The notes: generated from the sequence alone by a model not told the origin. A DNA stretch of 20,000 bases from an uncultured virus (IMG/VR IMGVR_UViG_3300006467_001879) (IMGVR_UViG_3300006467_001879); one strand, 5' to 3'. Shown: positions 128 to 19,029, counted from the first letter of the stretch. A program made the numbers and translations.

Positions 128-745
128 CTATTCAATTTTCAACTTTTTGATAATATTCTCCAAAGCCTCTTCTTGTTTGTCGGTGAGCTTTCCTTTTTTT
201 TCACAGCTTTTTTTGAGGCTATGGATGAATGATGTGTCAAACCAATCGTTTTTTTCAGCCCATTTTAAAACAAGATTAATTCGGGTAAAATTTGAGTTGG
301 ACTCATAGCTTGTAAAGTCAAGAAGCTTTTGGTTGATTCGCTCTTTAATATTGAGCTGTTTTCCTGATAGGTTTCGTTTTCTTATGATGTCTTGATAAAA
401 GTCGTATTCAAAATCGCTAAGTAATTTCTTATCCTTCATAAATTCAAGTACTTCGGCACTCATGCTTTTTGAAATATCTTCTTTTAACCGTTTGATTGAT
501 GTAAAGATCTTGTTGCCGTCATCAATGTTCAAGAATTTATTTACGCAACAATTTCCGACTTCGGTTATAGTGCCGTTGATTCTATTCTTAATAACACAGA
601 TATTCTTTATTGGGTAATGACCACATAAACACGATTCAAGCTCTTCACTGTAATAAGCGTAGTCAAAATCCCATTCAAACTTGGCATCCGTCCAGTTGTT
701 GGATTCACTTCTATCAATTATTTCAGTTATGAGTTTATATTCCAT
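128..745 (-). CDS. Hypothetical protein with putative Zn-binding Cys/His cluster
   Basis: 205-aa ORF with CLCGH...C...VGNCCV, and two C-terminal helical segments sharing L[ST]xKQ. Starts 3 nt after the upstream stop. Confidence 0.75.
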   Translation of the reverse strand: MEYKLITEIIDRSESNNWTDAKFEWDFDYAYYSEELESCLCGHYPIKNICVIKNRINGTITEVGNCCVNKFLNIDDGNKIFTSIKRLKEDISKSMSAEVLEFMKDKKLLSDFEYDFYQDIIRKRNLSGKQLNIKERINQKLLDFTSYESNSNFTRINLVLKWAEKNDWFDTSFIHSLKKSCEKKGKLTDKQEEALENIIKKLKIE

Positions 746-748
746 AAG

Positions 749-2554
749 CTATAAATTTCTCCAATGCTCCCAAATAATCACCATGGCAAGCGTATCGAGT
801 TTGCAATAACGTAATAAAGCCTCTTTGTAGGCTTTTTTTATTTCGGGTTGGTGTTTGCTGATACCAAAGAGCATATCTTCATAGGCTCGCATGGCTCCGG
901 TTCCTTCGTTTACCTTTTCTGCATTTTCCAACAGGTCGATGGGTGGTAAATGTTTGTAGGGGTTCTCGATTATTCCGTCTTCGCCACGGTGCAATAAATT
1001 GATGCCTTCGTCAAAATTCGATAGCCAGTTTTCGGTGCGTTTGGAATTATTGGCAGCCAAAACAGCCGGAAGGGTTACTTTAATACTGGTACGCCCTTTC
1101 ATTACAGGGTGGAAATAGTGTTTCAATGCCAAATCGTTCATGTCCACAAAGGCTCCTGCACCATTTTTATCAAACTTCACAACGTATTCCAACCATCGCT
1201 TTAATCCCGGAATGGATTGATTGTACTCTTCCATTTGGTAATAGATGTTTCGCAAGGTGGTGTTTTCATGTGAGCTCCACATCAAAAGTGTACCATCATA
1301 TCCGACCTTATTCATCAAACTTTCAGCAAAAGCAAAGCTTGGGAATTTAGGATCGGTATTGAGCCATTCATTATGAATAGGTTCAGCTCCGGGTTGTTTA
1401 ATGGTATGGCAACTCCATTGAAAAGCACTCATTTCATACGGTCGCATACCTTTATGAAAAGGCAATGCCGTAATACAGGTTTCAAAGTCAATAAAATGCA
1501 GCGGATATTTCCACGAGTTGATTTCCTCTTTCAATTCCCTTGCTATCCATTCCGATTGAGCTTTAGTATTGTTGATCTGTATCAATCTGCGTTCACCCCA
1601 AACACCTTCAAACGCTTTTTCAGGCAAGGCATCTACATCTAGTTTCTTTTCTCCAATTAAGGCGTTAGCAACGGATTCCTTATTTTCTTTGATATTCCCC
1701 AAACGGTACACATCTTTGATATGTAATTCCGGTTCCGGCATTCCTTTCCAACATTCATGGTAGCCGTTTTTATCTTCTCCGGCATTGTATTCACAAGAGA
1801 AGCAACCAATATTCAAAGGTTCCTGAATTTTCTCTCCCTTCTCTAAGCTCTCTGAATAAACTTTGATGGCGTTCTTAATGATGGAGCTACGTTTTTTCAC
1901 TTCATCGTTTACACCCACCTTTACCATTAAATCATCCTTACGAATAAGTTCAGGATCACCAATAAACTCAATCTCGTAAAACTTAAACTGATTGTGAGCT
2001 TCTACTTCTTTCAATTCAAACAAAGCGTTTAAGCCATCTATTTGAGTGCGCTTCGCTTTATCCGGAACAAACAGAAAACAGTCGATATGGGCATCTGGAA
2101 ATACTTCTTGTAGAAGCTCCTTTTGAAAAGCAATATCCTCTAAATATTCATCCCAACCTTTGTCAAACTTCGGGTTATCGGAATCAAAGCCTTTGGACTT
2201 TACTTCAATAATTTCAAACCGATTGCCTTGCTTAACTAAAATATCAATGGCAGCGACTTTGCCTTCAATCAATAAAGCTGGTTCAAAAAGAACTACATTT
2301 TCTTTTTGCAGCTCTTCTTTAGTTTGAGCTATGGCACTCTCCAGTCCGAGTTCGTTTTGTATGCGAATACCTTCCGGAAAATGAAGTGTAGCCAATTTAC
2401 CAACCGCATAACCACCTTCCGCAAGGTACTCCATGTATTCGTTGCCATCATTGGCAGATGGATAGCCATTTTTCTTGTAATACAACTTGGTCGGACAGCT
2501 ACGAGCTACCTTAAAATCGGACTTAGATAATATTTTTGAAAAGTCGGTTTTCAT
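749..2554 (-). CDS. DUF2779-family protein: N-terminal Cas4/RecB-like PD-(D/E)xK domain plus C-terminal RNase H-like DEDD domain
   Basis: LSKSDF...CP at the N-terminus; IDILV...IIEVKS nuclease motif; CFSC...C cluster; HFIDFET, PYE..AFQWSCH, SIKVTLP and LRYCKLDT motifs. Confidence 0.8.
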   Translation of the reverse strand: MKTDFSKILSKSDFKVARSCPTKLYYKKNGYPSANDGNEYMEYLAEGGYAVGKLATLHFPEGIRIQNELGLESAIAQTKEELQKENVVLFEPALLIEGKVAAIDILVKQGNRFEIIEVKSKGFDSDNPKFDKGWDEYLEDIAFQKELLQEVFPDAHIDCFLFVPDKAKRTQIDGLNALFELKEVEAHNQFKFYEIEFIGDPELIRKDDLMVKVGVNDEVKKRSSIIKNAIKVYSESLEKGEKIQEPLNIGCFSCEYNAGEDKNGYHECWKGMPEPELHIKDVYRLGNIKENKESVANALIGEKKLDVDALPEKAFEGVWGERRLIQINNTKAQSEWIARELKEEINSWKYPLHFIDFETCITALPFHKGMRPYEMSAFQWSCHTIKQPGAEPIHNEWLNTDPKFPSFAFAESLMNKVGYDGTLLMWSSHENTTLRNIYYQMEEYNQSIPGLKRWLEYVVKFDKNGAGAFVDMNDLALKHYFHPVMKGRTSIKVTLPAVLAANNSKRTENWLSNFDEGINLLHRGEDGIIENPYKHLPPIDLLENAEKVNEGTGAMRAYEDMLFGISKHQPEIKKAYKEALLRYCKLDTLAMVIIWEHWRNL

Positions 2555-4605
2555 TACAATTCAGCTTCCTCCTTAACAAGCATGAATTCCAATCCTAGTA
2601 TTTTGTATTTCGTTTCAATAGGAATTGAATTGAAATCTTCATTTATATAATCACACAAAAAGCTCAGTATTTTTAAACCTCTTTCAACGATGGTCTCCGG
2701 TGTCCATTCTGTTTCATTGGCAACTATCATGGCACTCATGGAATCGTATTTATAGCCTCTTTTAGGGTATCCTTCTCCTTTATTGCTTTGATCTACTTTG
2801 AAAGGGAATTTGTCATTTTGAAGTGAAGAGTTGGCACTCTTTGATAACGCCAAAAGATTGCCAAGGCTATTAGCAAAATTTCTACGTTGTTCAGGTGTGT
2901 ATTTTGTGAAGTGACTCCAGTCGTTTTGGATTTTATTATAAGCATCTTCAACTTCAATTGGTTCTTTTCCTTTGTGTTGAGCATAAGTTTCCAAACTCAC
3001 TGTGGCACTTTGAGGATAAATGTGCTCAATACTATCGTTCTTAACAAAATCAGTCCATTCTATTACACTACTCTCGCTTGAGTTTTTGTTAATTTTTCTA
3101 AGGTGTTTGTCATACTGATACAGTAAATAAAACCTCCCTGACCATTTGTAGAACCCGGTTTTGTGTCCCAATTCAAATAGTTCATAACTCTGATTTACAA
3201 ATAAGTTGAATCGGTAATACCAGGAAGTATATAGTTCCAGTTCTGTTTTGGTTTCGGCACTATCCTTTTTGCCTTTATATACCTCGTAAGCAAGGCTGTA
3301 TATTTTACTATCACCTGTATTTCCTCGTTTATCGGAAAGGTCAAATAGTTTGAAGCTGTATTTTTCCAGTGTTTTAATCGAATCAACAAAATCATTTCTA
3401 TCATCCCTACTTAAAATAGCAAGTAATATAGGCTTAAAAGATGCTTTCAGACCTACGTGATGCACTCCCTGAATAGCTGTTCTAATTACCTTTTCATCCT
3501 CATTAAAATACTTGATGTAATGTAGTTTATTCCACCATATTGAACAGACCTGTAAAGATTTAATGTAGGTCTCAATATCGGTACGTTTTAACTTCCCATT
3601 GTAAACATTATCAAGGCTAAAATGCTCATCAAACAAAAAGTTGGCATACACATTGGCTTCATCACGGCTATACTTATTGAAGTAAGCTATCCAATGATTT
3701 TTGATGAAATCTTCATCATCTAAAGGGTATTGTTTGTTTTGACCTAATGATTTGTAGATCGTAATCCATGCTTTATTTATTGATTTTTCTAATTCAGTTT
3801 TTTGAGCTTCATTTAGATTAAATACTTCCTGGGAATCCTCTGATACATGGTATTTATCATTGAGATAAAGAAGCCTGTTTTTTAGCTTTTCAAGTTGAGA
3901 TAATGGTTTTCCTCTGTTATTCATCGTCTCGAATACAACATACTCGTCCAGTTCTTCGGGAAGGATATATTCGTTTAGCCTCAATTGGTTGGTAACCTTA
4001 TTAAAGAGTTGCTCAATAGTATTTCCTTCTTCTCGGAGGTATAGGTCAACCATTGCCTCAAAGAAATTCTTCGCCTTTAAAAGGTTTTCGGTATATGTAC
4101 TTTCTTCGCTATCATCTTCTATTTCATTCAATGATAAGATGTGCTTCCTGAAAAACTTATCACTTGGATTGTCTTCGTCATATCCGAAAATATAGGCGTT
4201 AACACCTTTATTGATAAAGAGATATTGCATTTCCGCATCCCCTTCACGAATACCTAAAATCACATTTTGCTTTTGAGCCTCTCTAATAATCACACTCAGT
4301 AAAATCAATACAGAAGTGATTCGCTGCTGCCCATCTACAATAGAATACTGCTTGAAATTGTGCAACCAGTTATAATCACAAGGTTTTACTTCAACTAATG
4401 TTAGCAATCCTGTATAGTGCCATTTGCCTTCAGGAATATTAATCAAGTCATCCCATAGATCCTTTAATTGACCTTTCACATTCTTTAGAGGCTCTTTATT
4501 GTCAACCTTAATAGATTTATTGTTGGTCCAAGCATAACCACGCTGATAAGCTGGTATCCTTAATATTCTATTGGTGAAAATTTCGTGTATTGATTTTAAA
4601 TCCAT
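2554..4605 (-). CDS. gmrSD: GmrSD-type (DUF262 + DUF1524/HNH) restriction endonuclease
   Basis: IPAYQRGYAW, IVDGQQRITS and FETMNNRGKPL (DUF262); SIEHIYPQ and LGNLLALSKSANSSLQN (DUF1524). Confidence 0.9.
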   Translation of the reverse strand: MDLKSIHEIFTNRILRIPAYQRGYAWTNNKSIKVDNKEPLKNVKGQLKDLWDDLINIPEGKWHYTGLLTLVEVKPCDYNWLHNFKQYSIVDGQQRITSVLILLSVIIREAQKQNVILGIREGDAEMQYLFINKGVNAYIFGYDEDNPSDKFFRKHILSLNEIEDDSEESTYTENLLKAKNFFEAMVDLYLREEGNTIEQLFNKVTNQLRLNEYILPEELDEYVVFETMNNRGKPLSQLEKLKNRLLYLNDKYHVSEDSQEVFNLNEAQKTELEKSINKAWITIYKSLGQNKQYPLDDEDFIKNHWIAYFNKYSRDEANVYANFLFDEHFSLDNVYNGKLKRTDIETYIKSLQVCSIWWNKLHYIKYFNEDEKVIRTAIQGVHHVGLKASFKPILLAILSRDDRNDFVDSIKTLEKYSFKLFDLSDKRGNTGDSKIYSLAYEVYKGKKDSAETKTELELYTSWYYRFNLFVNQSYELFELGHKTGFYKWSGRFYLLYQYDKHLRKINKNSSESSVIEWTDFVKNDSIEHIYPQSATVSLETYAQHKGKEPIEVEDAYNKIQNDWSHFTKYTPEQRRNFANSLGNLLALSKSANSSLQNDKFPFKVDQSNKGEGYPKRGYKYDSMSAMIVANETEWTPETIVERGLKILSFLCDYINEDFNSIPIETKYKILGLEFMLVKEEAEL

Positions 4606-4617
4606 ATTCTAATATTC

Positions 4618-5673
4618 TTAATTCAACGCCTTATACCAATAGAAAAATGCTGCTTTGTCTCTCGATTTTTTGAGCTTGTTCAGGAAGTTTAGCTCACCGG
4701 AAATTTCCAGATTACTGATGTCCTGACCGTTAAATTTCTCTATCGCTGAATGGTCTTTGTTCTTTAATTGTTTGGCGAGGTAAGCTGCTTTACCTGCTGC
4801 AAGTATGGCATCTTCAATTTTGAAGTTTTCAGCGATCAAAAAGCCTTCAAACCTGCGTATTCCGGTAGTGAGTTCGGTAAACCTAGTTTTGTCTGGCTCC
4901 ACGGTATTTTTGGTTCGTTTGGCTATGAGTAAAGAAGTGGTGAAAATATCATCCAGTATCTCTGTTAAGCCAATTTCCAGTTCACGATAGTTGATTTCCT
5001 TAGCACCAATTTTCTCAAAACTCAACGCAATTTCTTCTACGTTTTCTACTTCGTCAAAGAGGCATCCAATATCAAAGAGTTGCTTAATAATTTCCTGTTC
5101 TTTGTCCTTGCCGTAAAGGATTCCAACGGTGTTTGGTGCAAATGCCGTGAGTTTGTCTCCTAAAATAGATTCAATAGAGGGAACAGCTACTTCCAATACT
5201 TCTTCGGATTCAATCCACTCCGATTGGATAGGAGCTGATAATAATCTTGGGTAATCGGTTTGCTCAAATAGAATATCCAATAACACAAAATGAGCACTTT
5301 GATTCAGGCTCGATTCATAATCAAATTCGTAATGAGCTTTGGGTACACCTTCTTTGTAGCTTCTTCTATCTTGTAGATCCCATTTATTGAAATGTGAGTT
5401 AGCCACCACTTTGTCCAGGATTGCTTCAACTTCCTCTCTGCTTTGAGTGGTAATAATATCAATATCTACCGAAAACCGTCTCGATTTGGAAAGCAACAAT
5501 ACCAAACTCGTACCGCCTTTAAAAGTAAACTCCAGACCATGAGCTTTGAGCTGCTGCAACAAGGAAAGAGCGTGTATCATTTTCTCCAATATTGGAGGAT
5601 TGATACGCTTCAAATGCTTTTGCTGCTTAAAGCCGTTGATCCATTCTTTGGTAAAACAATGTGCTTTTATCAT
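4618..5673 (-). CDS. abiEii: AbiEii/AbiGii-family nucleotidyltransferase toxin (type IV TA)
   Basis: FKGGTSL, RFSVDIDI, GDKLTAF and KQLFDI motifs; ATGA overlap with the upstream antitoxin-like gene. Confidence 0.9.
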   Translation of the reverse strand: MIKAHCFTKEWINGFKQQKHLKRINPPILEKMIHALSLLQQLKAHGLEFTFKGGTSLVLLLSKSRRFSVDIDIITTQSREEVEAILDKVVANSHFNKWDLQDRRSYKEGVPKAHYEFDYESSLNQSAHFVLLDILFEQTDYPRLLSAPIQSEWIESEEVLEVAVPSIESILGDKLTAFAPNTVGILYGKDKEQEIIKQLFDIGCLFDEVENVEEIALSFEKIGAKEINYRELEIGLTEILDDIFTTSLLIAKRTKNTVEPDKTRFTELTTGIRRFEGFLIAENFKIEDAILAAGKAAYLAKQLKNKDHSAIEKFNGQDISNLEISGELNFLNKLKKSRDKAAFFYWYKALN

Positions 5674-6440
5674 TCTAAAATATCTTTTAATAAATCGCCA
5701 AAATACTCACTCATGTAAGCCTTCAATTGCGGTTCTTTTTTTCGTCTCCTTGCATAGTTCAGCATTCGGCTAAAATTAACATGATACCTTTTTAAGGCAT
5801 TTTCAAACAGTGTTTCCATTTCACTTCCTTGAACCGTGTAAAAGGTTATTGGATCGCAGAATATATCCACCAACATTTTTTCTAAAGTCGGAACCTGAAT
5901 TTTATCCTTTGCCTTTGGTTTTATGGAAACCTTTTGTTTAGGCGAACGGCTAATAAGCGGTTTTATAACGATGGAAATTTCACTTTCCACATACCTTTCC
6001 ATGATGTCCTCATTAGGATCGAGATACACTCGGTATTGTTTGGATTCGGAATAGGCGTTGAATACTTCTTCCACAAAATCCCTTTCTACCTCTAATAAAT
6101 AGAAGAAAGTCCCCATTTGATGTCTTGTAAAGTCATTAAACCATTCAGTACTCCATAAGCAGTAATCTAGGTTGTCAAACTCCTTAGCGACAATTTTTGA
6201 GAGCTTTACAAGTTTATCAGAAATGGCAGGAACATACTTCTTACTGTTTGAAATACTGTAAACCCCTCGTTTTACGGATTTAATGATATTCTTATTTAGT
6301 AAGTCATGGATACGCCATGATAAAGCCGTTTCGGTCATTTCCGGATCGAATTGCTTTAAAAAGGCGAATAGCTCATCCCGATCGAATTGAGTTACGTCCT
6401 TAAAAGTCTCTATTAGCTGTTTCTCTATGAACTTTGTCAT
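5670..6440 (-). CDS. abiEi: AbiEi-like antitoxin / transcriptional regulator (DUF6577-like)
   Basis: N-terminal winged-helix pattern (LSWRIHDLLNKNIIKSVKRGVY); C-terminal PTLEKMLVDIF and YARRR; directly upstream of and coupled to the AbiEii gene. Confidence 0.8.
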   Translation of the reverse strand: MTKFIEKQLIETFKDVTQFDRDELFAFLKQFDPEMTETALSWRIHDLLNKNIIKSVKRGVYSISNSKKYVPAISDKLVKLSKIVAKEFDNLDYCLWSTEWFNDFTRHQMGTFFYLLEVERDFVEEVFNAYSESKQYRVYLDPNEDIMERYVESEISIVIKPLISRSPKQKVSIKPKAKDKIQVPTLEKMLVDIFCDPITFYTVQGSEMETLFENALKRYHVNFSRMLNYARRRKKEPQLKAYMSEYFGDLLKDILE

Positions 6441-6839: not shown

Positions 6840-6995
6840 ATGAAAAATACTGATTGGAAATCAATTGGCATTATGGCAGGAGTTTCACTAGGAGTTTTTG
6901 TGATTGGTACAATCCTAACCAAAAAAGTGATTGACCCTGCTATGGAGAAAGCAAAAGCTAAAAAGTTAGCAGAAAGCAGCGAAACAAAGAAGTAG
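6840..6995 (+). CDS. Small membrane protein, 51 aa (not in the ORF track)
   Basis: MKNTDWKSIGIMAGVSLGVFVIGTILTKKVIDPAMEKAKAKKLAESSETKK*; A-rich sequence before the ATG; one TM followed by a Lys-rich tail. Confidence 0.75.
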   Translation: MKNTDWKSIGIMAGVSLGVFVIGTILTKKVIDPAMEKAKAKKLAESSETKK

Positions 6996-7049: not shown

Positions 7050-7937
7050 ATGAATCCATATAACGATGAGTTGATGGCATACGAAGATGATGCCGAAGAC
7101 AGATACGATGACTACGATGGGTATGAAGAAGATGACTTCGATACCGGTTTTGAAGGTCATGAAGACAGTTATTACGATGAGGATGAATACTACGATGAAG
7201 AAGTAGAATACATTCCTGCCGATGATGACGACATGTACGATAGTTACAAAACAAATTCTATCGGACGTATTGACCCTAACGACCGAACCCTGACCGTAGT
7301 AGTGAAAAATACTTCCGGAGCTGATGCAGAAGCCATTCTGTTTGGAGCAAACGAAGAAGCAGCACAACCTGCCGGTGTAACGGTAAGCGTTGAAGAGAGT
7401 TCACACAAAGAAGTAAGGGAGGAATCAAAAGCCAACCCATTCAAGATTGTGGGAATGAAAATGTCGGTTTCCAATCCATTGCAATTTGACAATGTATTGA
7501 AGATCAATAAAAGGACAGCGACAGGAAGCAATTCGGTAAGAGTTTACCAACCAAGAAATGCAACTTCTCCACAAAACTTCACTCAAGGTTTGATTGATGA
7601 CAACAACTTTGAAGTGGACGTTACCGGACAAGACAGCATTAGATTATTGCTTAAAGATGGTGTAACGGTGGTATTCACCTTCACAATCAAGGCAAGAGCC
7701 AACATGGGTAACTTATTGGACGGTAAAAATGTTGCCGAGCTTTCAACTGCTCCTAGAACAACTGGTCTTCCACAATTAGACTTAATCAGAAGTAAAAAGC
7801 CGACAGCCTTTGGTTTGAAGCCTAAGAAACTGGTAAAGAAGATTGTCAGAAAGAGACCTAGTCCTGTTAAACGCAGACGTGGTATTTCAATGAGAAGACG
7901 ACCTGGAGGAAGAGGATTCTTACGCAGAAGAAGATAA
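7050..7937 (+). CDS. Candidate major capsid/structural protein: acidic N-terminus, beta-sandwich core, basic C-terminus
   Basis: About 65 aa of D/E/Y-rich N-terminus; about 140 aa of alternating beta-strand pattern; K/R-rich tail ending RRRPGGRGFLRRRR; no TM; followed by a terminator-like hairpin. The ORF is solid, the function is inferred. Confidence 0.55.
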   Translation: MNPYNDELMAYEDDAEDRYDDYDGYEEDDFDTGFEGHEDSYYDEDEYYDEEVEYIPADDDDMYDSYKTNSIGRIDPNDRTLTVVVKNTSGADAEAILFGANEEAAQPAGVTVSVEESSHKEVREESKANPFKIVGMKMSVSNPLQFDNVLKINKRTATGSNSVRVYQPRNATSPQNFTQGLIDDNNFEVDVTGQDSIRLLLKDGVTVVFTFTIKARANMGNLLDGKNVAELSTAPRTTGLPQLDLIRSKKPTAFGLKPKKLVKKIVRKRPSPVKRRRGISMRRRPGGRGFLRRRR

Positions 7938-7983
7938 GAACCTATGCAAGCTGTAAAAGGCTCATAACAGGGACAATTTAAAG

Positions 7984-8020
7984 CAGCCAAAGTCAGCGTG
8001 ATAGCTCTTTGGCTGTTTTT
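7984..8020 (+). terminator. Intrinsic terminator-like hairpin
   Basis: CAGCCAAAG (7984-7992) pairs with CTTTGGCTG (8007-8015), followed by TTTTT. Confidence 0.7.
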
Positions 8021-8043: not shown

Positions 8044-8676
8044 ATGCAAAAAAGTTTAACAAGGTCGAAATACGCACAAAATCGCATTGCCTACATCGTG
8101 TATGGCAATCCGGATGGGGCACGCAAGTTTTTGTTTGACCAAGGGTATCATGCTCCAAAGAACATTCACGATTTAGTGAAGGCAACTAAGGAACTGGTGA
8201 AAACGGAAGGCAAAAGCATTGTTCCGCACTTGTTAACTATTCATCCGGAAAAAGATTTGATTTTGAAACTAAACCAACCAAAGGAAGATAGCTTTTGCGG
8301 TTCATGTGGCAGCAGCTCTTTTAATCCTGAATCCAACTTTTGCGGGGCTTGTGGCAACAGCAATTTTGGTGGTGATTCCAACTTGGATGTAGGCGACTAC
8401 ATTGATCAAATGGTGGATATGACCACTTCCCAATTGGAAAAACATTATCAGGAAGTATTGGCAGCCTCCAATAAAAAGCCGGAAGACTTATCCCTTATGG
8501 AAGAAGTTCAACTGGTTTGGAATGAATTAAGACAGCGAAAACTAACTGCTGAATCCCCAAAAAAGGAAGAACCCAAAGACAAAGACCGCTTTTCTGTTTC
8601 AAAAGACGGATTAGTGATTTTGGGGTTAACACTGGTAGCCGGTGTACTCATCGGATCCTCCATAAAAAGCAACTAA
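8044..8676 (+). CDS. Hypothetical protein with two FCGxCG repeats and a C-terminal TM
   Basis: DSFCGSCG and SNFCGACG; C-terminal GLVILGLTLVAGVLIG. Confidence 0.8.
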   Translation: MQKSLTRSKYAQNRIAYIVYGNPDGARKFLFDQGYHAPKNIHDLVKATKELVKTEGKSIVPHLLTIHPEKDLILKLNQPKEDSFCGSCGSSSFNPESNFCGACGNSNFGGDSNLDVGDYIDQMVDMTTSQLEKHYQEVLAASNKKPEDLSLMEEVQLVWNELRQRKLTAESPKKEEPKDKDRFSVSKDGLVILGLTLVAGVLIGSSIKSN

Positions 8677-8677
8677 G

Positions 8678-9247
8678 ATGATTAGAATAGTCAAAGAGGA
8701 AAATACACAGGTACTCAATCAGCAATCCAAGGCTGCTCTATCCTTAATTGGTGTAGCCGTAGCTAAAAATCCAAAGCCCTATAAAATGCTTTTGGATAGA
8801 TATGGCATTCAGGTTCCAACAAGCGATAAAATATCTCTAGCTAATGGATTGGTTGAAGGTTTAGCCCTTCAAAACAAAACATTCAATCGGGAGCTAACCG
8901 AGCTACTCAGTAATATGGTAGAATCGGAAACCGCCTATAATCCTGATGAAGATGAATACCATTATGTACAAGCCATAGCCGGAGCAATTGCCGGAATATC
9001 CGGAGCTGTGGGAAGTATCGTTGGTGGCAAGAACAAGCAGAAAATGGCAAAGGAAGAAGCTCGCAGAGAAATGCTGAATAACATGCTTGCCATGAAAGCC
9101 CAGGAACAACAAGCTGCTGCCGAAGAACGCAAGTTGGCAGGCAAGAAAAGCCTATACCTCATAATCGGAGTGTTGGGCTTACTAGGGATCATCGGCTTCT
9201 TCTACTTCCGGCAAAGAAAAAATTTAATCAATACAAATCCTTCATAA
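8678..9247 (+). CDS. Hypothetical membrane protein with Gly/Ala-rich helix, coiled coil and C-terminal TM
   Basis: AIAGAIAGISGAVGSIVGG segment; LYLIIGVLGLLGIIGFFYF followed by RQRK. Confidence 0.8.
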   Translation: MIRIVKEENTQVLNQQSKAALSLIGVAVAKNPKPYKMLLDRYGIQVPTSDKISLANGLVEGLALQNKTFNRELTELLSNMVESETAYNPDEDEYHYVQAIAGAIAGISGAVGSIVGGKNKQKMAKEEARREMLNNMLAMKAQEQQAAAEERKLAGKKSLYLIIGVLGLLGIIGFFYFRQRKNLINTNPS

Positions 9248-9257
9248 ACGATAGATC

Positions 9258-9677
9258 ATGGAAATAAGCAATTATAACTACGGAATAAGTGGTCAGCCTA
9301 CAAACGAGTGGGACAACTTTTTATGCTTTGGTAGAAAATGTAAGCAAGGAAAAGCCGAAAGGCATAAGCTTAGAATGGAAAAGCGAAAGCTAAAAAATGA
9401 CCAAAGGCGTGCTGAGACAGAATCTATGAGAGCAGAAACAAGCTTAACGAAGCAATTGGCTTCGCCAACATCTACTCCAACTCCGCAGATGGCTCCACAA
9501 ATGATGATGCAACAAGCACCACAACCAACATCAACGGCACAAGCTCCAGCTCCACAAGTGCAAAAAGCAGGTATGGGAAGTCCGGTAATGATTGTCATCG
9601 GTTTGCTTGTAGTTGGAGGTTTAGTGTATCAATCCATGAAGAAAAAAGAGGCTGCTGCTCCAGTACAAACTGCTTAA
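9258..9677 (+). CDS. Hypothetical protein: basic tract, P/Q/T linker, C-terminal TM
   Basis: EWDNF, then K/R-rich helix, low-complexity linker and VMIVIGLLVVGGLVY. Confidence 0.8.
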   Translation: MEISNYNYGISGQPTNEWDNFLCFGRKCKQGKAERHKLRMEKRKLKNDQRRAETESMRAETSLTKQLASPTSTPTPQMAPQMMMQQAPQPTSTAQAPAPQVQKAGMGSPVMIVIGLLVVGGLVYQSMKKKEAAAPVQTA

Positions 9678-9687
9678 AATTTAAGTT

Positions 9688-10236
9688 ATGATAGCTGCAA
9701 ACCCGATATATGAATTACAGTTTTATGGAGGTCTTTTAGAAGAGGAAGACAACTTTGTTGATGGCTTAGGAAATGAATTTGAGTACGATGAATTCATTGG
9801 TAAGTGGATCAAAAAAAGAAAGGAAAAGCGAAGCCAAAATCCTAAAGTCATTGCTCGAAGAGAAAAAAGGGATGAAAAACGAATTGCCAAAGGCAGAAAG
9901 CCTAGGTTTAGTCGTCCTGCTCCGGTGCGAACTTCCAAACCGGTAGTAAAGCAAGTTGCTCCCGATTTACCTCCAAAGAAGGAACCAATATTGAGTGAAC
10001 CACAAGTGAAAAAAGCTATGGTGGAGAGCTCTTCTAAATCAGAAGAACCAAGCACTAAACCGATGGAACAAACCGAAACAATTGCTTCGGAAAGCACTAC
10101 GAATTTAACAGCCGAAAACACAGAAAACCAACCACAACAAGCCTCTATGCTGCCTTTTGGCATGAGCAAGAAGACCTTGGTTTTTGTGGGTGTTGGTGTG
10201 GCTGCATTGGTAGTAATTGGAATAATCAGAAAATAA
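9688..10236 (+). CDS. Hypothetical protein: acidic leader, basic tract, linker, C-terminal TM
   Basis: EEEDNF...EYDEF, then KWIKKRKEKR...; terminal LVFVGVGVAALVVIGII. Confidence 0.8.
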   Translation: MIAANPIYELQFYGGLLEEEDNFVDGLGNEFEYDEFIGKWIKKRKEKRSQNPKVIARREKRDEKRIAKGRKPRFSRPAPVRTSKPVVKQVAPDLPPKKEPILSEPQVKKAMVESSSKSEEPSTKPMEQTETIASESTTNLTAENTENQPQQASMLPFGMSKKTLVFVGVGVAALVVIGIIRK

Positions 10237-10245: not shown

Positions 10246-10473
10246 ATGGACATACTCGCTCAAATAACGGAAGAAGAAGCAACAACCAACGGAAACTTAC
10301 CCCAAGGTTTTCTCTTCGCCTCCATCAAGAACGTGGGAACAAGCACAGCTCTTGTGAACAATGTGCCTTTGCCTCCGGGAGAAGCCAAAAGCTACCCCTT
10401 TGTAGGAAAAGGTTATCAGGCGGTAAACTATGAGCCACAAGGTTCTACACTTAGAATATTAAGAATCCTATAA
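10246..10473 (+). CDS. Small all-beta protein (possible minor virion/vertex protein)
   Basis: 75 aa, beta-rich, ASIKNVGTSTALVNNVPLPPGEAKSY; fits the operon spacing. Confidence 0.65.
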   Translation: MDILAQITEEEATTNGNLPQGFLFASIKNVGTSTALVNNVPLPPGEAKSYPFVGKGYQAVNYEPQGSTLRILRIL

Positions 10474-10562: not shown

Positions 10563-10982
10563 ATGATTGCAGGAGAAACAGAATATATCATACATGGTGG
10601 AGAAGATAATTACGATTACTTCTTGAAAAACCTGTTTAAGAAAGATCCCAACAAACAGTCAAAACCCAAACGTACTGCCGAAGAAAAAGCAGCTCGAAAA
10701 GAGCAACGCCAACAATGGTGGGGAAAGCAAAAAGAAGGTTTTCAAAAAGCCGGAGGTGTGGAAGGTATTACCAGTACCCTAGGAAATATTGTAGGCTTTT
10801 TTAAAGACGATACACCAACGGATTATGATGTTTCCATGGGTGGACAGCCTGCCCCTGAACCTGAGAAAAAAGGCATTTCAAAAGAAGTAATGATTATCGG
10901 AGGAATAGCCGTGCTAGTGATTGCTGCATACGGCTTTTCAGTCATGCAAAAGAATAAGAAAGTACAAATCCAGTCCGCTTAA
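10563..10982 (+). CDS. Hypothetical protein: acidic leader, basic tract, amphipathic helix, C-terminal TM
   Basis: EDNYDYF, then KNLFKK...KPKR; VMIIGGIAVLVIAAYGF; TAATG coupling to the next gene. Confidence 0.8.
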   Translation: MIAGETEYIIHGGEDNYDYFLKNLFKKDPNKQSKPKRTAEEKAARKEQRQQWWGKQKEGFQKAGGVEGITSTLGNIVGFFKDDTPTDYDVSMGGQPAPEPEKKGISKEVMIIGGIAVLVIAAYGFSVMQKNKKVQIQSA

Positions 10983-11788
10983 TGTTAGTACCAGTACCAA
11001 CACATAACAATCGTTTTGTTTTGAAGGTAGGAATTAAAGCCCTTCGACCGGTCATTATTGCCCTTAAAGGTTATGATGCCCACAGAGCTAATTCCTATTA
11101 TTTCAGAAGAAAGGTTCCTTTCAAGCCCTCGGCAATGAGAGACGGCATGAATTACAAGGAAATCTCTATTCCAATGCCTTTGTCTCCTGAAACTTTGTTG
11201 GTTGAAATTTACAATAGCGAGTCCGGTGAAGACAATGGCTATGTAATTGAAAAGTTTGAATTGGAAAAACTGGATGCTTCTGAGGTTTGGGCTCAACCTG
11301 CCATGCATCGCTTCATTGACTTTGCTCAAAACTTTGCGAAGTATAGTGGTACATACAAGCCCGGATTTTTCGATTCACCCGACCATGAATTTTTGATTCA
11401 GTTACTACCAGTCATTAAAGACCAGTTTGGCAATACCATGGTAACGCCTGCTAGAACCAACCGTCAGACCGGTAGAATACAGGTCTCAAATCAGGCATTC
11501 AAACACTTTACCATTCCGGTAAGGATGTTTGTGTTATTGCATGAACGCCAACATTTTCAAATACCGACACGAGAAGAACGTCCGGCAGACCTTGCTGCAT
11601 TAAAGCTCTATTTGGATCTACAATACCCAAAAATTGAGGCGGTGTACGCTGCTACAAAAGTATTTGCCATGCACCCTGAAACCGTGGGAAGTCAGCATGT
11701 AACAAGAGCTCAGGACATTATCAATTTCATTGACAGGTATCGCAATACCCAAGAAATTATGTTAAACCACAAAGCCAAAGCCGTATGA
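10982..11788 (+). CDS. Putative zinc metalloprotease (HExxH) with N-terminal beta domain
   Basis: FVLLHERQHF followed by EERPADLAAL, an ExxAD third-ligand motif as in M48/M78-like zincins. Confidence 0.65.
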   Translation: MLVPVPTHNNRFVLKVGIKALRPVIIALKGYDAHRANSYYFRRKVPFKPSAMRDGMNYKEISIPMPLSPETLLVEIYNSESGEDNGYVIEKFELEKLDASEVWAQPAMHRFIDFAQNFAKYSGTYKPGFFDSPDHEFLIQLLPVIKDQFGNTMVTPARTNRQTGRIQVSNQAFKHFTIPVRMFVLLHERQHFQIPTREERPADLAALKLYLDLQYPKIEAVYAATKVFAMHPETVGSQHVTRAQDIINFIDRYRNTQEIMLNHKAKAV

Positions 11789-13521
11789 ACAGCAAACAGA
11801 AAATAGGGTTATTGGGAGCTTTGGCGGTGGTTGGCACAGGTTATTTCCTTTTCAAAAATGACAAGGATGAAAAGACAATAAGCACCACAGACAAAGAAAC
11901 TAAGTTGCACGGTGATGATACCGAAAGCAACTTTATTGGTATTTCCAATGCTCGTATTCATCAGGCATTAATGGCTCAAAACCCCAACTATGCTAAAGCG
12001 TATAAAAAGGACTTAAAAACATGGGGAACAGTATCGGGCGTGATAGATGTTTCCAATGACTTTGATGAAGCCAAACGCAAGAAAAAGAAATTAAAAGCCT
12101 TTGCCCAAAAAGCATTGGAAGTTCAGAAGAACTACAAGGAAAAGGCTGCCTATTTACCCGAAATATCCAAAACACAAATTTCCCTTACCAATAATGGGAC
12201 TTCAGTTAGAACCGTCAATTTATGGGGAGCTAATATGGCTACTTCTATCAGTAAGCCATTACCCGAAGATGTTCAGGATCACAAGGTAAATCAAGAAGTA
12301 CAAACAGGCATACATCCTCAAAATGTAGGCTTCAATTCGTTCAATGGATTACTGTATGTAGCCAATCAGTTGAGCGATAGTATTACTATCATGGATAAGT
12401 CGGGAGCAATTGTAAAAACCGTTGCTTTGGGTAGTGTTTATCCCGGATTTGTTTCTCCGGTGGATGTTGCCTTTAACCCTTCTAATGGGGAAGCATGGGT
12501 AGTATGTTCGGTTGAGAATACAGTTAAAATATTGGATGCTACGCATAACATCATTCAAACCATTCCAGTAGGCAATCGACCAACTTCCATTGCTTACAAT
12601 CCTGAAAATAGCTGTTTTTATGTGAGCAATTTATTGGATGATACGCTTTCCAAAATTGACAGTACTAGCTACAATGTAGTAGTGACTTTAAATACCGGAG
12701 AAGATCCAAGAACAGTTTCGGTATGGACTGAACAAGGAACGGTTTGGGTAAGCAATTCAAGTTCAGATTCAGTTAGTGTTTTTGATGCAGCCGATAATCT
12801 GCTAAATGAAATAAATGCCACAGGAGATTATCCTACGGAGTTTACCACAACAACAAGCAGCCTGTTTTTGATAACCAAGAACAGCAAAGAGTTACTGGAA
12901 CTCAATCCGCAAACGCAAAATATTGAAAACACCTATCCACTAGGGTTTCAACCAAGTGGATTGGTCTATAATCCGGTTAATGGATTTTTATACGTGTTGA
13001 GCAGTCAAACTGGCTTAACCTATATTTATTCCACTACCGGAACACGTTCAGAGACTTTGTCGCTAAACAATGCACCAAACATTGGAATAGCTGCCTTACC
13101 AAATGGCGAGGTATTTACAACCAATACAAGTGGTGGCAACCTTGCTTTTATCGGTTATTCCGAAAGCAGTAGCGACATTACAATAAATGAAAGTTACCCT
13201 GAAAAACGAGCGGAATTTCAGTTCAAACCTGCATTGGTTAAACATGCCAAGTTTGTGTTTTCGGATGAAAACCGAGCAAGTGGCTTAAAACTGATTCACC
13301 AAAGTCCAACAGGGAAACAACACGTTACCCCGATTTCATTCAACAATTACAAAAGTCCACAAAACTACCTCGATGTAGCGGAAGTAACAGCCGTTCGTGG
13401 TGATGTGATTGATGGAAAATCAACATGGGAGTTTAAGATAGCTCCTGGACAGACCATTACCATTTTGGTCTATTACAAACAGCTTCAATTCAAATATTTA
13501 ATACCAACAATTAAAATTTAA
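11785..13521 (+). CDS. Membrane-anchored YVTN/YncE-type beta-propeller protein, with the propeller inserted in a domain paralogous to ORF 7050
   Basis: N-terminal TM; repeats LYVANQLSDSITIMD, FYVSNLLDDTLSKID, VWVSNSSSDSVSVFD and IPVGNRPTSIAYNP; flanking segments align with ORF 7050. Confidence 0.85.
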   Translation: MNSKQKIGLLGALAVVGTGYFLFKNDKDEKTISTTDKETKLHGDDTESNFIGISNARIHQALMAQNPNYAKAYKKDLKTWGTVSGVIDVSNDFDEAKRKKKKLKAFAQKALEVQKNYKEKAAYLPEISKTQISLTNNGTSVRTVNLWGANMATSISKPLPEDVQDHKVNQEVQTGIHPQNVGFNSFNGLLYVANQLSDSITIMDKSGAIVKTVALGSVYPGFVSPVDVAFNPSNGEAWVVCSVENTVKILDATHNIIQTIPVGNRPTSIAYNPENSCFYVSNLLDDTLSKIDSTSYNVVVTLNTGEDPRTVSVWTEQGTVWVSNSSSDSVSVFDAADNLLNEINATGDYPTEFTTTTSSLFLITKNSKELLELNPQTQNIENTYPLGFQPSGLVYNPVNGFLYVLSSQTGLTYIYSTTGTRSETLSLNNAPNIGIAALPNGEVFTTNTSGGNLAFIGYSESSSDITINESYPEKRAEFQFKPALVKHAKFVFSDENRASGLKLIHQSPTGKQHVTPISFNNYKSPQNYLDVAEVTAVRGDVIDGKSTWEFKIAPGQTITILVYYKQLQFKYLIPTIKI

Positions 13522-13525: not shown

Positions 13526-14020
13526 ATGGGAAAATTAAACTATCTGGTCATTCACTGTACCGCAAGTCCTGAAGGCAAAGAGCTTACTAAGGACGATATT
13601 ATTCGCATGCACACTAACCCAAAACATTTGGGAGGAAGAGGTTGGAATCGTCCGGGATATTCCGACATCGTGTACCTCGATGGAGAGCTTGTAAACATCA
13701 TACCATTCAACCAAGACGATCAAGTGGATCCATGGGAAATATCCAATGGAGTACGTGGCATCAATGGTAATTCAAGGCATGTGGTGTATGTAGGTGGTGT
13801 TGATGAAAGTGGAGAAAAGCCAAAAGACACAAGAACTAAAAAGCAAAAAGGCACTTTAGAAACCTATGTAAAGTTCATGGTATTACGTCATCCGCATATT
13901 CAGGTTTTAGGACATAATCAAGCTCCCGGAGCAAGCAAGGCTTGTCCAAGTTTTGATGTTCCTAAGTGGTTGGAAAGCATCGGTATTTCAGAGGTAAACA
14001 TTTACAAAGAAGAAGACTAA
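13526..14020 (+). CDS. N-acetylmuramoyl-L-alanine amidase (Amidase_2, T7 lysozyme-like)
   Basis: YLVIHCTA, GW..PGY, YVGG, LGH and KACPSFDV motifs. Confidence 0.92.
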   Translation: MGKLNYLVIHCTASPEGKELTKDDIIRMHTNPKHLGGRGWNRPGYSDIVYLDGELVNIIPFNQDDQVDPWEISNGVRGINGNSRHVVYVGGVDESGEKPKDTRTKKQKGTLETYVKFMVLRHPHIQVLGHNQAPGASKACPSFDVPKWLESIGISEVNIYKEED

Positions 14021-14205
14021 TGAGAACGGTAATCACATTGGCAATAGGCTTTTGGCTAGGCAGGCAAATCTACATTAAGTTCGACAAACAAACGGCTCTT
14101 AAAAAGGAAGAGCAAATCAAAAAACGCTTGAAGTCCTTTTTGGAAGATAATGGCTTAACCAAAAGTGAAGTGAAAGAAACCACGGAAGAAATTATAGGCA
14201 TATAA
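14020..14205 (+). CDS. Small protein with N-terminal hydrophobic anchor (start revised from 13966)
   Basis: ATG overlaps the amidase stop (TAATG); MRTVITLAIGFWLGR..., 61 aa. Confidence 0.7.
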   Translation: MRTVITLAIGFWLGRQIYIKFDKQTALKKEEQIKKRLKSFLEDNGLTKSEVKETTEEIIGI

Positions 14206-14228
14206 ATCAATCCCAAAAATCAGAAAAC

Positions 14229-14702
14229 ATGGTAGGAGCAGTTGCAGGAGCAAAAGCCGTTGAAGGCTTATCACAAAACAAGGCTACCCCTTACATCATA
14301 GGGGGAATTATCCTCGTGGGTATTGGCATTACTTATTTTGGAGTGATACGCCCGATTCTTTGCAAAACTGGAATAGCCGACTGTAAAAGCAGCAAGAAGA
14401 TTCGAGACATTATGAGCTACAAAGGCTTTGATCCGAATTATGCTCGTCCTGAAAAAATCACGCTTTCCCACGATAGAGCAAAACAACTGGCTACCCAAAT
14501 TTATGATGCCGGTTCCTGGTATAATGATGATGAAGGAGCGATTTATTCTGCTTTGGAAGAAACCGGAAGTGCTGATAACCTTTCCCTGATTTCTCGAATG
14601 TTCAGTGCCATGAAATATGGCAGTTTGGCTGAATACATCACTTATTACCTAGATGATCCCGATGAAGTGGCACGAGTAAAAGACATTTTAGAAAGCTATT
14701 AA
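14229..14702 (+). CDS. Membrane-anchored protein with an annexin-like repeat
   Basis: TM YIIGGIILVGIGITYFGVI. AKQLATQIYDAGSWYNDDEGAIYSAL...ISRMF...YGSLAEYI resembles the annexin repeat (A..L..A..G.GTDE.AI..IL...Y...YG.SL). Confidence 0.6.
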   Translation: MVGAVAGAKAVEGLSQNKATPYIIGGIILVGIGITYFGVIRPILCKTGIADCKSSKKIRDIMSYKGFDPNYARPEKITLSHDRAKQLATQIYDAGSWYNDDEGAIYSALEETGSADNLSLISRMFSAMKYGSLAEYITYYLDDPDEVARVKDILESY

Positions 14703-14713
14703 CCTTTAGAATT

Positions 14714-15121
14714 ATGGATGCAAAGACAAAGAAATATTTAATCATAGGTGGCGTAGCAACGGTCGTTGTAGCACTTGCAGGATTTGGAGTTCACAAGTTT
14801 ATCAAGAACCGAAAAAACCGCACTACAAGTGGCAAACAAAAAGAACGAGAAGAACAAAAGCTCATTGGTAAAAAGGTGCATTACGGATCGGAAGGTTATG
14901 TCAATGTAAGAAGCTCTGCCAAAGTGGATAATGAGAACTGGACTACTATGGATTTCTCGCACAACCTATTAACACAAGCAGAAAGTAATCCTGTGGGAAC
15001 CATTTTAGAACGCCTCAAAGGTGAAGATGGCTATTACTGGTACAAGATAAAACTGACCAAGCCTGTGGGAAGCAAAACCGAAGGCTATGTGCGTGAAGAT
15101 GCAGTTGTTGTTCAATATTAA
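14714..15121 (+). CDS. Membrane-anchored SH3b-like domain protein
   Basis: N-terminal TM; YVNVRSSA...GYYWYKI...EGYVREDAV. Confidence 0.75.
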   Translation: MDAKTKKYLIIGGVATVVVALAGFGVHKFIKNRKNRTTSGKQKEREEQKLIGKKVHYGSEGYVNVRSSAKVDNENWTTMDFSHNLLTQAESNPVGTILERLKGEDGYYWYKIKLTKPVGSKTEGYVREDAVVVQY

Positions 15122-15133
15122 ACCCTAAAAGAC

Positions 15134-15514
15134 ATGAAGAAAGAGACAATTAAACTGGATAATAAAATGCTATGGATCGGAGCTGGACTGGCAGTTACAG
15201 CAGCCGGTTTTGGCGTATGGTATTTTCTGAAAAAACGAAAAGAGAAACAGCAATTTGCTGCAAGCATTAAAGGAACAACCACTTCGAGCAGTTCTTCAGG
15301 AGTTCGCTCATTTAGTTGCATGTATTCCGATAGCAGCTTCCCATTGAAATTCGGAACCTGTGGAACCAATGTGAAGAAGCTCCAAAACTACCTAAACTCA
15401 AAAGGATCAGGAATAGATACAGATGGCAAGTTTGGTCCGAAAACAGAAGCAGCAGTTCAGAAGGTATTTGGCACTAAAACGGTGTCTCAGGAGAAATTCA
15501 AAACGATAAGCTAA
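15134..15514 (+). CDS. Membrane-anchored peptidoglycan-binding (PG_binding_1) protein
   Basis: N-terminal TM; PLKFGTCGTNVKKLQNYLN...DGKFGPKTEAAV. Confidence 0.85.
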   Translation: MKKETIKLDNKMLWIGAGLAVTAAGFGVWYFLKKRKEKQQFAASIKGTTTSSSSSGVRSFSCMYSDSSFPLKFGTCGTNVKKLQNYLNSKGSGIDTDGKFGPKTEAAVQKVFGTKTVSQEKFKTIS

Positions 15515-15518
15515 TACT

Positions 15519-15719
15519 ATGGAAACAGAAGAAAGAACAGGCATAAAAAACTATTTGGACAATGTGTTTAGCGATGATGGATTAAAAACCGACATCAAAA
15601 TCACAATGACCGATGAGACATTGAGAAAGACAAGCTTGTACCTAGTGGGTTCAGGCTTGGTGATTACGCTCATCGTTTTTGGTATTCGAGGAATTGTAAA
15701 AAATATGGAAGCTCAGTAA
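15519..15719 (+). CDS. Small protein with C-terminal TM
   Basis: 66 aa; LYLVGSGLVITLIVFGI; TAATG coupling to the next gene. Confidence 0.75.
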   Translation: METEERTGIKNYLDNVFSDDGLKTDIKITMTDETLRKTSLYLVGSGLVITLIVFGIRGIVKNMEAQ

Positions 15720-16066
15720 TGAATAAGAAGGTTGTTGCATTATTCGCTATATCCGTTTTTGCCGGAGCCGGTTATGTGGCTTGGGCGTATTCTCCTTTGG
15801 GAAAAACGATCATTTCTAAACGCCTATTAATTCGTTGGGAAAAGGATTTAAAAGTGGACAAGGCAAATAAAGATCTTCTTGAAAAAGAGCTCAAAGTATT
15901 GGATTACGAACAGCATGTTTTACTATGGAATTTAACTCGATGGCATTTAGCCAAACCTTCCGAGAGGAAAGAGAAAAAGCTCAAAAATTTGGCTTTGCAG
16001 CTAAACGAATCGGGTATAGAAAAGCATGCAGCCCTCAAACAGATAACAGATATGCTCCAATCATAA
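15719..16066 (+). CDS. Hypothetical protein with N-terminal TM
   Basis: MNKKVVALFAISVFAGAGYVAWAY followed by a helical, charged region. Confidence 0.75.
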   Translation: MNKKVVALFAISVFAGAGYVAWAYSPLGKTIISKRLLIRWEKDLKVDKANKDLLEKELKVLDYEQHVLLWNLTRWHLAKPSERKEKKLKNLALQLNESGIEKHAALKQITDMLQS

Positions 16067-16077
16067 ATGCAAGAATT

Positions 16078-17183: not shown

Positions 17184-17189
17184 AGAATT

Positions 17190-18869: not shown

Positions 18870-18876
18870 GTACGTC

Positions 18877-19026
18877 ATGAAGGAGAATAAAACAATGAAC
18901 ATCTTGTTTGCAACATTTATGGTATTGTCCATTGCAAACATTTCAATCAATCTTTTGAGAATGAAAAAGAGCTGCAAATGCCAAAGCGGTGAAAGCGGTG
19001 GTTGTAGTTGTCAAAAACAAGCATAA
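18877..19026 (+). CDS. Small membrane protein with Cys-rich tail, 49 aa (not in the ORF track)
   Basis: MKENKTMNILFATFMVLSIANISINLLRMKKSCKCQSGESGGCSCQKQA*; fills the gap between 18869 and 19030. Confidence 0.7.
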   Translation: MKENKTMNILFATFMVLSIANISINLLRMKKSCKCQSGESGGCSCQKQA

Positions 19027-19029
19027 TCA

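Follow-up and report, generated by a model that had tools for sequence, protein, structure and literature searches.

Genes and features of the locus

The window, i.e. the whole stretch of 20 000 nucleotides analysed here (uncultured virus IMGVR_UViG_3300006467_001879), carries cargo genes on the minus strand, followed on the plus strand by a structural arm and lysis genes. The following features were distinguished.

128-6440, minus strand: variable defence cargo (GmrSD nuclease, DUF2779 protein, AbiEii toxin and DUF6577 partner)
6840-6995, plus strand: 51-aa single-TM protein with a basic C-terminus; it opens the structural arm and is conserved ahead of the jelly-roll gene
7050-7937, plus strand: single jelly-roll protein of 295 aa, candidate major capsid precursor
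7050-7247, plus strand: acidic, Tyr-rich leader of that protein (aa 1-66), with an N-terminal helix, a disordered tract and the end motif YDSY
7248-7790, plus strand: its conserved core (aa 67-247), an eight-stranded jelly roll and short C-terminal helices
7791-7934, plus strand: its disordered Arg/Lys-rich arm (aa 248-295), net charge +22
7983-8020, plus strand: conserved intrinsic-terminator-like hairpin (7983-8016) and U-run (8016-8020)
8044-9247, plus strand: two membrane-anchored proteins (210 and 189 aa, C-terminal TM) with loose D-x-F motifs only
9258-9677, plus strand: 139-aa protein with an acidic leader ending WDNF, a basic segment and a C-terminal TM; motif in 10/10 orthologues
9688-10236, plus strand: 182-aa protein with an acidic leader ending YDEF, a basic segment and a C-terminal TM; motif in 6/6 orthologues
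10246-10473, plus strand: conserved 75-aa beta-rich protein of no family
10563-10982, plus strand: 139-aa protein with an acidic leader ending YDYF, a basic segment and a C-terminal TM; motif in 11/12 orthologues and 4/4 further genomes
10982-11788, plus strand: 268-aa zincin-type metallopeptidase (HExxH...ExxAD), candidate maturation protease
11785-13521, plus strand: 578-aa jelly-roll paralogue with an inserted beta-propeller (probability 94.9, E 4.8e-8)
13526-14020, plus strand: Amidase_2 endolysin-like protein
14020-16497, plus strand: run of small, mostly single-TM proteins
15134-15514, plus strand: peptidoglycan-binding domain in one small protein of that run
16493-17183, plus strand: overlapping Rz/Rz1-like spanin pair, the first with a weak PHROG match, the second deduced from the layout
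17190-18530, plus strand: 446-aa fibre-like protein with tail-fibre/collar repeats
18534-19566, plus strand: holin-like 111-aa protein and M15 peptidase endolysin with an N-terminal TM

A hydrophobic segment was found in 15 of the 24 ORFs of the structural arm. The jelly-roll gene was the most conserved gene of the arm (median 67%), and the 75-aa beta-rich protein, a candidate penton or cement protein, came second (median 63%). The share of C-ending codons, compared over 15 genes of the window, was highest in the jelly-roll gene (0.54 vs 0.28-0.45), a weak sign of high expression. Neither the 75-aa protein nor a 144-aa beta protein matched the jelly-roll profile, and they are not detectable paralogues. 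The propeller of the 578-aa paralogue is inserted into its barrel, which suits a vertex spike; this protein is a candidate vertex spike or receptor-binding protein.

In the protein encoded at 8044-8676 (plus strand), two CxxC pairs were seen at aa ~80-105, each after D/N-S/N-F. Most orthologues retain them, though some have them lost or halved; they form a possible metal site or repeated processing signal. The AbiEii toxin and its DUF6577 or similar partner lie directly upstream of the structural arm (window 4618-6440, minus strand). Such a pair occupies the same spot in loci L001, L002, L004-L009, L056 and L069-L071, while the other cargo varies. It may stabilize the provirus.

Charge layout of the jelly-roll protein

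A tract of D, E and Y, YYDEDEYYDEEVEY, was found near the N-terminus of the ORF at 7050-7937. Residues 1-65 contain 31 D/E and 11 Y and have a net charge of -30. Residues 66-247 have a net charge of 0. Residues 248-295 contain 22 K/R and zero D/E, giving +22. The protein is thus laid out as described in the earlier note, with an acidic N-terminal tract, a central beta-strand domain of ~140 aa (strand-rich core at about residues 79-217, within a conserved domain spanning 66-247) and an Arg/Lys-rich C-terminus. The extreme charge polarity (leader -30, neutral core, tail +22) proved to be a trait of the close family. A leader charge of -10 or lower was combined with a tail charge of +10 or higher in 122 of the 124 close homologues with a locatable core. 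Neither charged end was present in 131 of 146 distant homologues, whose ends were mostly uncharged, and uncorrelated. Since the charged ends are mostly missing in distant homologues, the polarity appears to be a clade-specific elaboration, dispensable for the basic role of the fold. A copy at L016 1506-2075, identical in its first part, stops at 189 aa and is broken or misassembled in one assembled genome.

Fold and family searches

Homologues of similar length numbered 361, the named ones being from Bacteroidota, and the core profile retrieved 265 representatives (50% clustering). In the full-length model, residues 3-19 formed a helix, residues 33-74 and the tail were disordered, and the strand-rich core was modelled with confidence. 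The helix at 3-19 of the leader is conserved. The core-only model, built on an alignment of 139 sequences, had eight main strands with a pLDDT of 95.1 and a pTM of 0.88. Structure searches (Foldseek, VIA) were run with both the full-length and the core models. Solved jelly rolls were aligned to the core over ~100 residues with an rmsd of 3-4 Å and a Z of about 6. In these predicted structures the core is a single jelly roll, its topology being taken from the structural matches and not read off the coordinates. The jelly-roll core expected in the earlier note was therefore recovered in the monomer as one eight-stranded barrel.

The viral matches were PR772, phiCjT23, FLiP, STIV turret and SPV1 chains (Z 4.6-6.1). 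They included a 124-aa PR772 chain, which we take to be the penton. All structural matches were jelly rolls, but generic ones: none reached a Z of 8, and the viral chains scored no higher than Ena pili and the cores of nucleoplasmin pentamers. The fold by itself therefore cannot name the role of the protein. No helvetiavirus capsid protein was among the structural matches listed by Foldseek and VIA.

The protein matched no family, non-structural or other, in Pfam, PHROGs or NCBIfam, and no sequence among the solved structures of the PDB. The 139 members of the alignment gave nothing substantial in PHROGs (three single-member matches, E 0.002-0.008), and the ESM Atlas returned scores below 0.9 only.

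Hairpin and U-run after the gene

The hairpin and T-run that had been proposed to follow the gene lie at 7983-8020; five T follow the hairpin and the next start codon is at 8044. When the 108-nt gap was folded, z was -2.54, and 3 of 200 shuffles were as stable. The hairpin at 7983-8016 was not listed by a simple terminator scan, probably because its loop region exceeds the limits of the scan. Of 18 related loci read by eye, 17 had a hairpin followed by a T-run (short in one case) between the gene and its downstream neighbour. In the eighteenth, that of genome G044, both lie within the first codons of the next gene (L049 949-1000). Several related loci have quite different stem sequences in the same gap. 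An alignment of 11 rows, picked for alignability, had all 110 stem cells paired and two-sided changes in 4 of 10 pairs; its stem score was reached by 0 of 500 shuffles. The structure is thus conserved with compensatory changes.

Leader and tail charges vary together

If the leader masks the tail, the two charges are expected to co-vary, and they do. Over the 117 close homologues in which both boundaries could be located, leader and tail charge were correlated with a rho of -0.92. The relation held in tree-corrected contrasts (r -0.67), with lengths controlled (partial r -0.81) and after thinning to 11 representatives with <80% core identity (rho -0.96). Informative sister pairs shifted in the predicted direction in 14 cases out of 17. 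The correlation with core charge was much weaker than that between leader and tail, and no link of charge matching to the GC content of the locus was found. The leader contains ~1.4 acids per tail base (10th-90th percentile 1.32-1.52). The net charge of the precursor is -8 in the window protein and -12 as the family median, for which the leaderless form would be at about +24.

The acidic leader therefore probably masks the basic tail, as had been suggested. The accompanying label of a DNA mimic did not hold as well: the leader is more convincing as an internal counter-ion to the tail of the same protein than as a DNA look-alike directed against host enzymes. Charge matching is a clade-specific device.

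A motif at the leader end and a zincin in the operon

The motif [YWF]-D-x-[FY] closes the leader three residues ahead of the core in 100 of 104 close homologues. In the window protein the candidate cleavage site is YDSY, after Tyr66. Three further, unrelated membrane-anchored proteins encoded in the operon likewise have an acidic leader that ends in the motif and is directly followed by basic residues; in the orthologues of the four unrelated genes it was present in 12/12, 10/10, 6/6 and 11/12 cases. As background, 1 of 446 proteins had the motif together with an acid-to-base switch in its first 110 aa, a comparison to be read with the motif having been defined on these very sequences after viewing, and forming easily in a D/Y-rich leader. 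In four genomes fetched later, it was found in the capsid gene (4/4), in the orthologue of the gene at 10563 (4/4) and in a further basic TM protein (3/4). It was loose or missing in the 210-, 189- and 578-aa proteins (0/12, 3/13 and 3/9). The clade formed by L053-L055 is devoid of [YWF]-D-x-[FY] and has [YF]-x-N-[AG] in 7/12, 3/4 and 4/5 ORFs. In L055, nine such motifs were observed across structural genes for 1.1 expected.

The zincin has an HExxH motif and a conserved downstream acidic ligand. H187, E188, H191, A202 and D203 are invariant in 11 of 11 members, and E199 is present in at least 90%. The same pattern occurs in minimal forms of 115-120 aa. Family searches named nothing beyond a SprT-like match (E 0.018, in one of 11 members) and an atlas lead at 0.86. 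The zincin was matched in 13 of 22 genomes, to which G044 was added by a script. Four small elements (G044, G852, G901 and G911) combine a zincin with acidic or aromatic leaders. Five others (G814, G890, G962, G1007 and G1083), two of them on short contigs, have neither such a leader nor a zincin near the jelly-roll gene in the fetched DNA. In L055 a zincin is present, yet the leader is neutral.

In the small elements the zincin has shrunk to ~115-120 aa (L049 2239-3180; L060 12690-13049; L062 12681-13028; L058 ~14850-15170). The shrunken zincin of G044 is fused to a basic TM protein, and that of G911 has no ATG start.

On these patterns of motif and gene content, chances are about even that the leader is cleaved by the operon zincin. 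The cleavable leader imagined in the earlier note has gained a candidate site, [YWF]-D-x-[FY], and a candidate enzyme. The same virus and the same capsid role are also compatible with a leader that is never cut and stays in place as counter-ion or scaffold, the motif serving as a docking signal and the zincin acting on a substrate elsewhere (a host repressor or an envelope protein). Charge matching needs no cleavage, the first helix of the leader is conserved and the zincin gene is 3 kb downstream, all of which would suit an uncut leader. Such a leader is nevertheless unlikely, because in four unrelated proteins the motif coincides with the switch from acid to base, because it changes as a block between clades, and because the small elements with a leader have the zincin while the leaderless ones lack it in the fetched DNA near the gene. 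Both the activity of the zincin and its substrates are predictions from the motifs and from gene co-occurrence.

The element reconstructed from relatives

The ATPase and integrase belonging to the window fall outside it and were deduced from relatives. The structural arm is 92-98% identical at the DNA level to L001 (uncultured Flavobacteriales) and L005 (Formosa), and the copy of L006 (Polaribacter) is 81-98% identical. Five genomes have one layout: an integrase, a regulator, a wHTH replication-like gene, a glycosyltransferase, large DarB-type methylase and helicase proteins and a P-loop ATPase come with variable defence cargo, a structural arm headed by the jelly-roll gene, and lysis genes. 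In close relatives this integrated Bacteroidota element measures 54-64 kb. Direct att repeats at tRNA ends bound 57.5 kb in G001 (14 bp) and 58.3 kb in G004 (35 bp). The gene content spans ~64 kb in G002 and ~54 kb in G005, with no clear repeat: the search for att repeats gave none for G003, G005 or, by BLAST, G002, where only a 9-bp repeat was noticed by eye.

The ATPase matched Zot weakly, and one member passed the Pox_A32 cut-off (24.2 vs 22.8 bits). Its conserved motifs, which we take to be Walker A, Walker B and R-H...Q, place it in the relatives with the FtsK-HerA/A32-type ATPases. A weak match (E 1e-5 to 1e-7) to part of the terminase-labelled phrog_2666 was also obtained. Terminase (PF03237) and portal (PF04860) were found in 0 of 5 genomes, the controls being positive. 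The relaxase (PF03432) and the coupling protein VirD4 (PF02534) were found in only one of the five genomes, G002, at more than 1.8 Mb from the element, so that for these two families the pair that marks an integrative conjugative element is missing from the element itself. No capsid, portal or tail-tube family was detected in the 58 ORFs scanned out of 62 listed for the G002 element, the other four being short or partial. Among the large proteins of the related elements are methylases and SNF2 or Strawberry-notch helicases, some with ART-PolyVal, DarA_C or LPD domains.

The cargo of three of these genomes was labelled partly from N-terminal sequence, and is presumably as follows: an arsenic-resistance-like block inside the right end of the G001 element (L019 12240-16930), a BREX-like kinase/methylase/ATPase block in G002 (the whole of L024), and, in G003, genes with a CRISPR-associated look that precede the second copy (L026 38-8162, with L037).

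Wider family and distribution

The deep profile, run on sets of 401 genomes, matched 3 in the phylum of G002, 6 in its family and 14 in the order of G044. In G044 the match belongs to a 21.7-kb provirus with a 17-bp repeat at a tRNA-Arg gene. This provirus carries a rolling-circle-like initiator (a weak Rep_trans/CRI-like match), an ATPase, the jelly roll 0.7 kb downstream of it, a zincin, a lysozyme and an integrase. The ATPase thus still stands beside the jelly-roll gene in relatives of 22 kb. Of the 22 genomes with a jelly-roll match, 18 also had the ATPase, in every case on the contig of the jelly-roll gene and often <3 kb from it; of the four misses, three concerned contigs of <10 kb and one a spurious match (G048). 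That G048 match (E 1e-4) was rejected since no ORF corresponds to it. The two weakest of the 14 matches, G1024 and G922, were excluded from the ATPase and zincin counts.

The ATPase and the jelly roll, the latter by selection, were the only families universal in the 11 elements compared. The only genes of 230-500 aa common to G002, G004 and G005 encode the SJR, the zincin, the ATPase, a glycosyltransferase, part of a fibre and an acidic protein of 277 aa, and no other beta-rich gene of this size was common to the 11 elements. Profile searches retrieved one plain SJR per element, the second match being a propeller-bearing paralogue of 510-650 aa.

L055, a 135-kb metagenome contig that was read in part, has at least five jelly-roll paralogues (2149-4081, 16339-17970 and 18994-19560), and one of its ORFs, of 435 aa, apparently contains two tandem barrels. 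Three distinct copies of the capsid gene are listed for one genome of Kordia algicida (P0050, P0051 and P0093) and two each in G003 and G583. Several copies per genome suggest multiple related proviruses per host.

No relatives were found among 50 697 phage records (INPHARED), nor in pattern scans of IMG/VR with the core, a distant homologue, the protease and the ATPase, scans that need conserved exact stretches. A single short IMG/VR match was spurious. No free virus genome has thus been seen in these collections. Supplements such as the PMC5894146 and PMC5512222 gene tables and most subscription papers aside, no published description of the group was found in the literature. The accessible text of PMC9502842 does not mention the element, and the 4-kb element described in the accessible part of bioRxiv 2025.08.03.668216 is unlike this one. 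Named records include cultured carriers, so induction is feasible.

Comparison with known virus groups

The Helvetiavirae have an internal membrane and proviral forms. In the accessible text of PMC8812541 they are described with two SJR capsid proteins and an FtsK-HerA ATPase, and according to that of PMC12451622 they now form the realm Singelaviria. Their members (Sphaerolipoviridae SH1, Matshushitaviridae P23-77, Simuloviridae) resemble the present elements, as far as these sources go, in the SJR capsid and the FtsK-HerA ATPase. However, their two SJR capsid proteins are different proteins, whereas a single SJR is common to all the elements compared here, and its usual paralogue is broken by a propeller insertion. 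A second plain SJR major capsid protein was not retrieved by profile search in the elements, L055 having further paralogues. The Helvetiavirae also differ in host phylum, zincin, leaders and DarB-like proteins. No sequence link to proteins of the Helvetiavirae (SH1, P23-77) or of SPV1 was found in the PDB or PHROGs.

The portoglobovirus SPV1 likewise has a single SJR major capsid protein, in its case with no packaging ATPase (PMC8812541, accessible text). The elements differ by their ATPase, present in 11 of 11. SPV1 moreover has an archaeal host, and its chain, aligned over 121-126 residues (Z 4.6-4.8), is tied with unrelated folds and has no advantage over unrelated jelly rolls.

Like the elements, FLiP, phiCjT23 and the FLiP-group prophages (Ainoaviricetes) have Bacteroidota hosts and are tail-less. 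One domain of the FLiP and phiCjT23 capsid proteins aligns with the core (Z 5.4-6.0), and the weakly matched Rep_trans/CRI-like initiator of the 21.7-kb relative is a further resemblance. As described in the accessible part of PMC5894146, this group differs in its two-barrel (double jelly roll) capsid protein, its ssDNA genomes of up to 17 kb and its lack of a packaging ATPase. The PM2/PRD1-type viruses (Vinavirales, Tectiviridae) share with the elements many small TM genes, lysis genes, proviral forms and, in the compact relatives, an ATPase next to the capsid gene. They differ by their double jelly roll and by genomes under 20 kbp, the size given for prokaryotic double-jelly-roll viruses in the accessible text of PMC8812541. 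The protein studied here has one barrel, as opposed to the double barrel of the Bamfordvirae and Abadenavirae, and no double-jelly-roll candidate common to the elements was found.

In adenoviruses, virophages and poxviruses, one viral protease, mainly of the cysteine type, trims several virion proteins at a short motif. The putative maturation system is similar in its one protease, several virion proteins and short common motif. It differs in that those viruses have eukaryotic hosts and cysteine proteases, whereas a candidate zincin and acidic leaders occur here. The related elements further carry methylase and helicase proteins of the kind of P1 DarB and the polyvalent proteins. Phages with polyvalent proteins are, in the accessible text of PMC5512222, of the terminase-portal class with no internal membrane, whereas these elements have no terminase and no portal. 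The terminase, portal and HK97 capsid of Caudoviricetes were not found, although a fibre-like gene and the weak, ATPase-only matches to phrog_2666 were. The element resembles in its predicted working a membrane-containing vertical-jelly-roll virus, yet it departs from each named group in the capsid feature that defines that group. An icosahedral particle with vertical barrels and an internal membrane would be in keeping, indirectly, with a gene content rich in TM proteins.

Role of the jelly-roll protein

Conservation, universality, codon share, the propeller paralogue and linkage to the ATPase together make the gene behave like a major capsid gene, and the protein is likely to be the major capsid protein. 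The earlier view of a major structural protein is upheld in so far as no gene of the structural arm is better conserved and, together with the ATPase, this one is universal; the protein probably builds the shell and is less likely to be a penton or an internal nucleoprotein.

The protein could instead be no shell protein but a penton or a pentameric, nucleoplasmin-like nucleoprotein, with the DNA enclosed in a membrane vesicle or pleomorphic particle made of small TM proteins; the 51-aa TM protein could then be the coat. Nucleoplasmin cores have acidic tracts and basic tails, and they stand with the PR772 chain among the top structural matches. The frequency of hydrophobic segments in the structural arm (15/24), the resemblance of the ATPase to Zot and the range of element sizes, from 22 to 64 kb, would also fit. 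On the other hand, the Z differences are ties, the jelly-roll gene is universal whereas the TM proteins are not, the vertex role is already suited by the propeller paralogue, and a full lysis set is present, unlike in extruded or budding particles. This reading is quite improbable. A defence island or otherwise-moved integrative element, whose jelly-roll operon would be a domesticated (GTA- or tailocin-like) particle or a relic, would account for the large variable defence cargo and for the absence of relatives from virus collections, but it is very hard to reconcile with the patchy occurrence (6/401 in the family and 3/401 in the phylum of G002), the 92-98% DNA identity between copies in different families, the intact reading frames, integrases and att repeats, and an element that has no relaxase or coupling protein (PF03432, PF02534).

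Proposed working of the virus and its meaning

On balance, we favour the gene as that of the capsid precursor of an undescribed, tail-less, temperate Bacteroidota virus with a probable internal membrane, matured by the zincin. An element of 54-64 kb would integrate at tRNA 3' ends and encode an FtsK/HerA-type packaging ATPase. One vertical single jelly roll would make up its shell, which would assemble on a membrane organized by the many single-TM proteins, and the propeller paralogue would form the vertex spikes. In the near-neutral precursor, the leader would shield the Arg/Lys arm from early binding to the nucleoid, the ribosome or the membrane. After assembly, the zincin would cut at [YWF]-D-x-[FY] in the capsid protein and in at least three membrane-anchored basic proteins. 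The cut would expose about +22 per subunit and so give a grip on anionic lipid or DNA. The terminator would stop most transcripts after the capsid gene and thus keep the capsid protein far above the minor proteins, in line with the high stoichiometry first suggested. The ATPase would package the DNA, perhaps with DarB-like proteins, and the lysis genes would free the particle.

New here are the charge tracking, the leader-end motif in four operon proteins, the operon zincin and the motif of the sister clade. Signs of an electrostatic pro-peptide are rare at the level of sequence, and the near-linear match between leader and tail charges is one of them. The group would also be one that phage catalogues and profile libraries miss entirely. 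More tentatively, these elements may be unclassified, widespread temperate viruses of Bacteroidota of 22-64 kb, combining a membrane-lined shell of one SJR with an FtsK-type pump. In such viruses several proteins would lose charge-matched acidic pro-peptides to a zincin cutting at a four-residue signal that is specific to the clade, and the particle would deliver DarB-like polyvalent proteins thought to be confined to tailed phages. The known prokaryotic vertical-jelly-roll viruses come, in the accessible text of PMC8812541, in three forms: with a double barrel, with two single barrels, and with one single barrel but no pump. If the reading is true, one SJR with an ATPase would be the state that lies, in the published scenario, between the portogloboviruses and the helvetiaviruses. 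A lineage of this kind, whose genomes reach three times the usual size, would fill a gap in the scheme.
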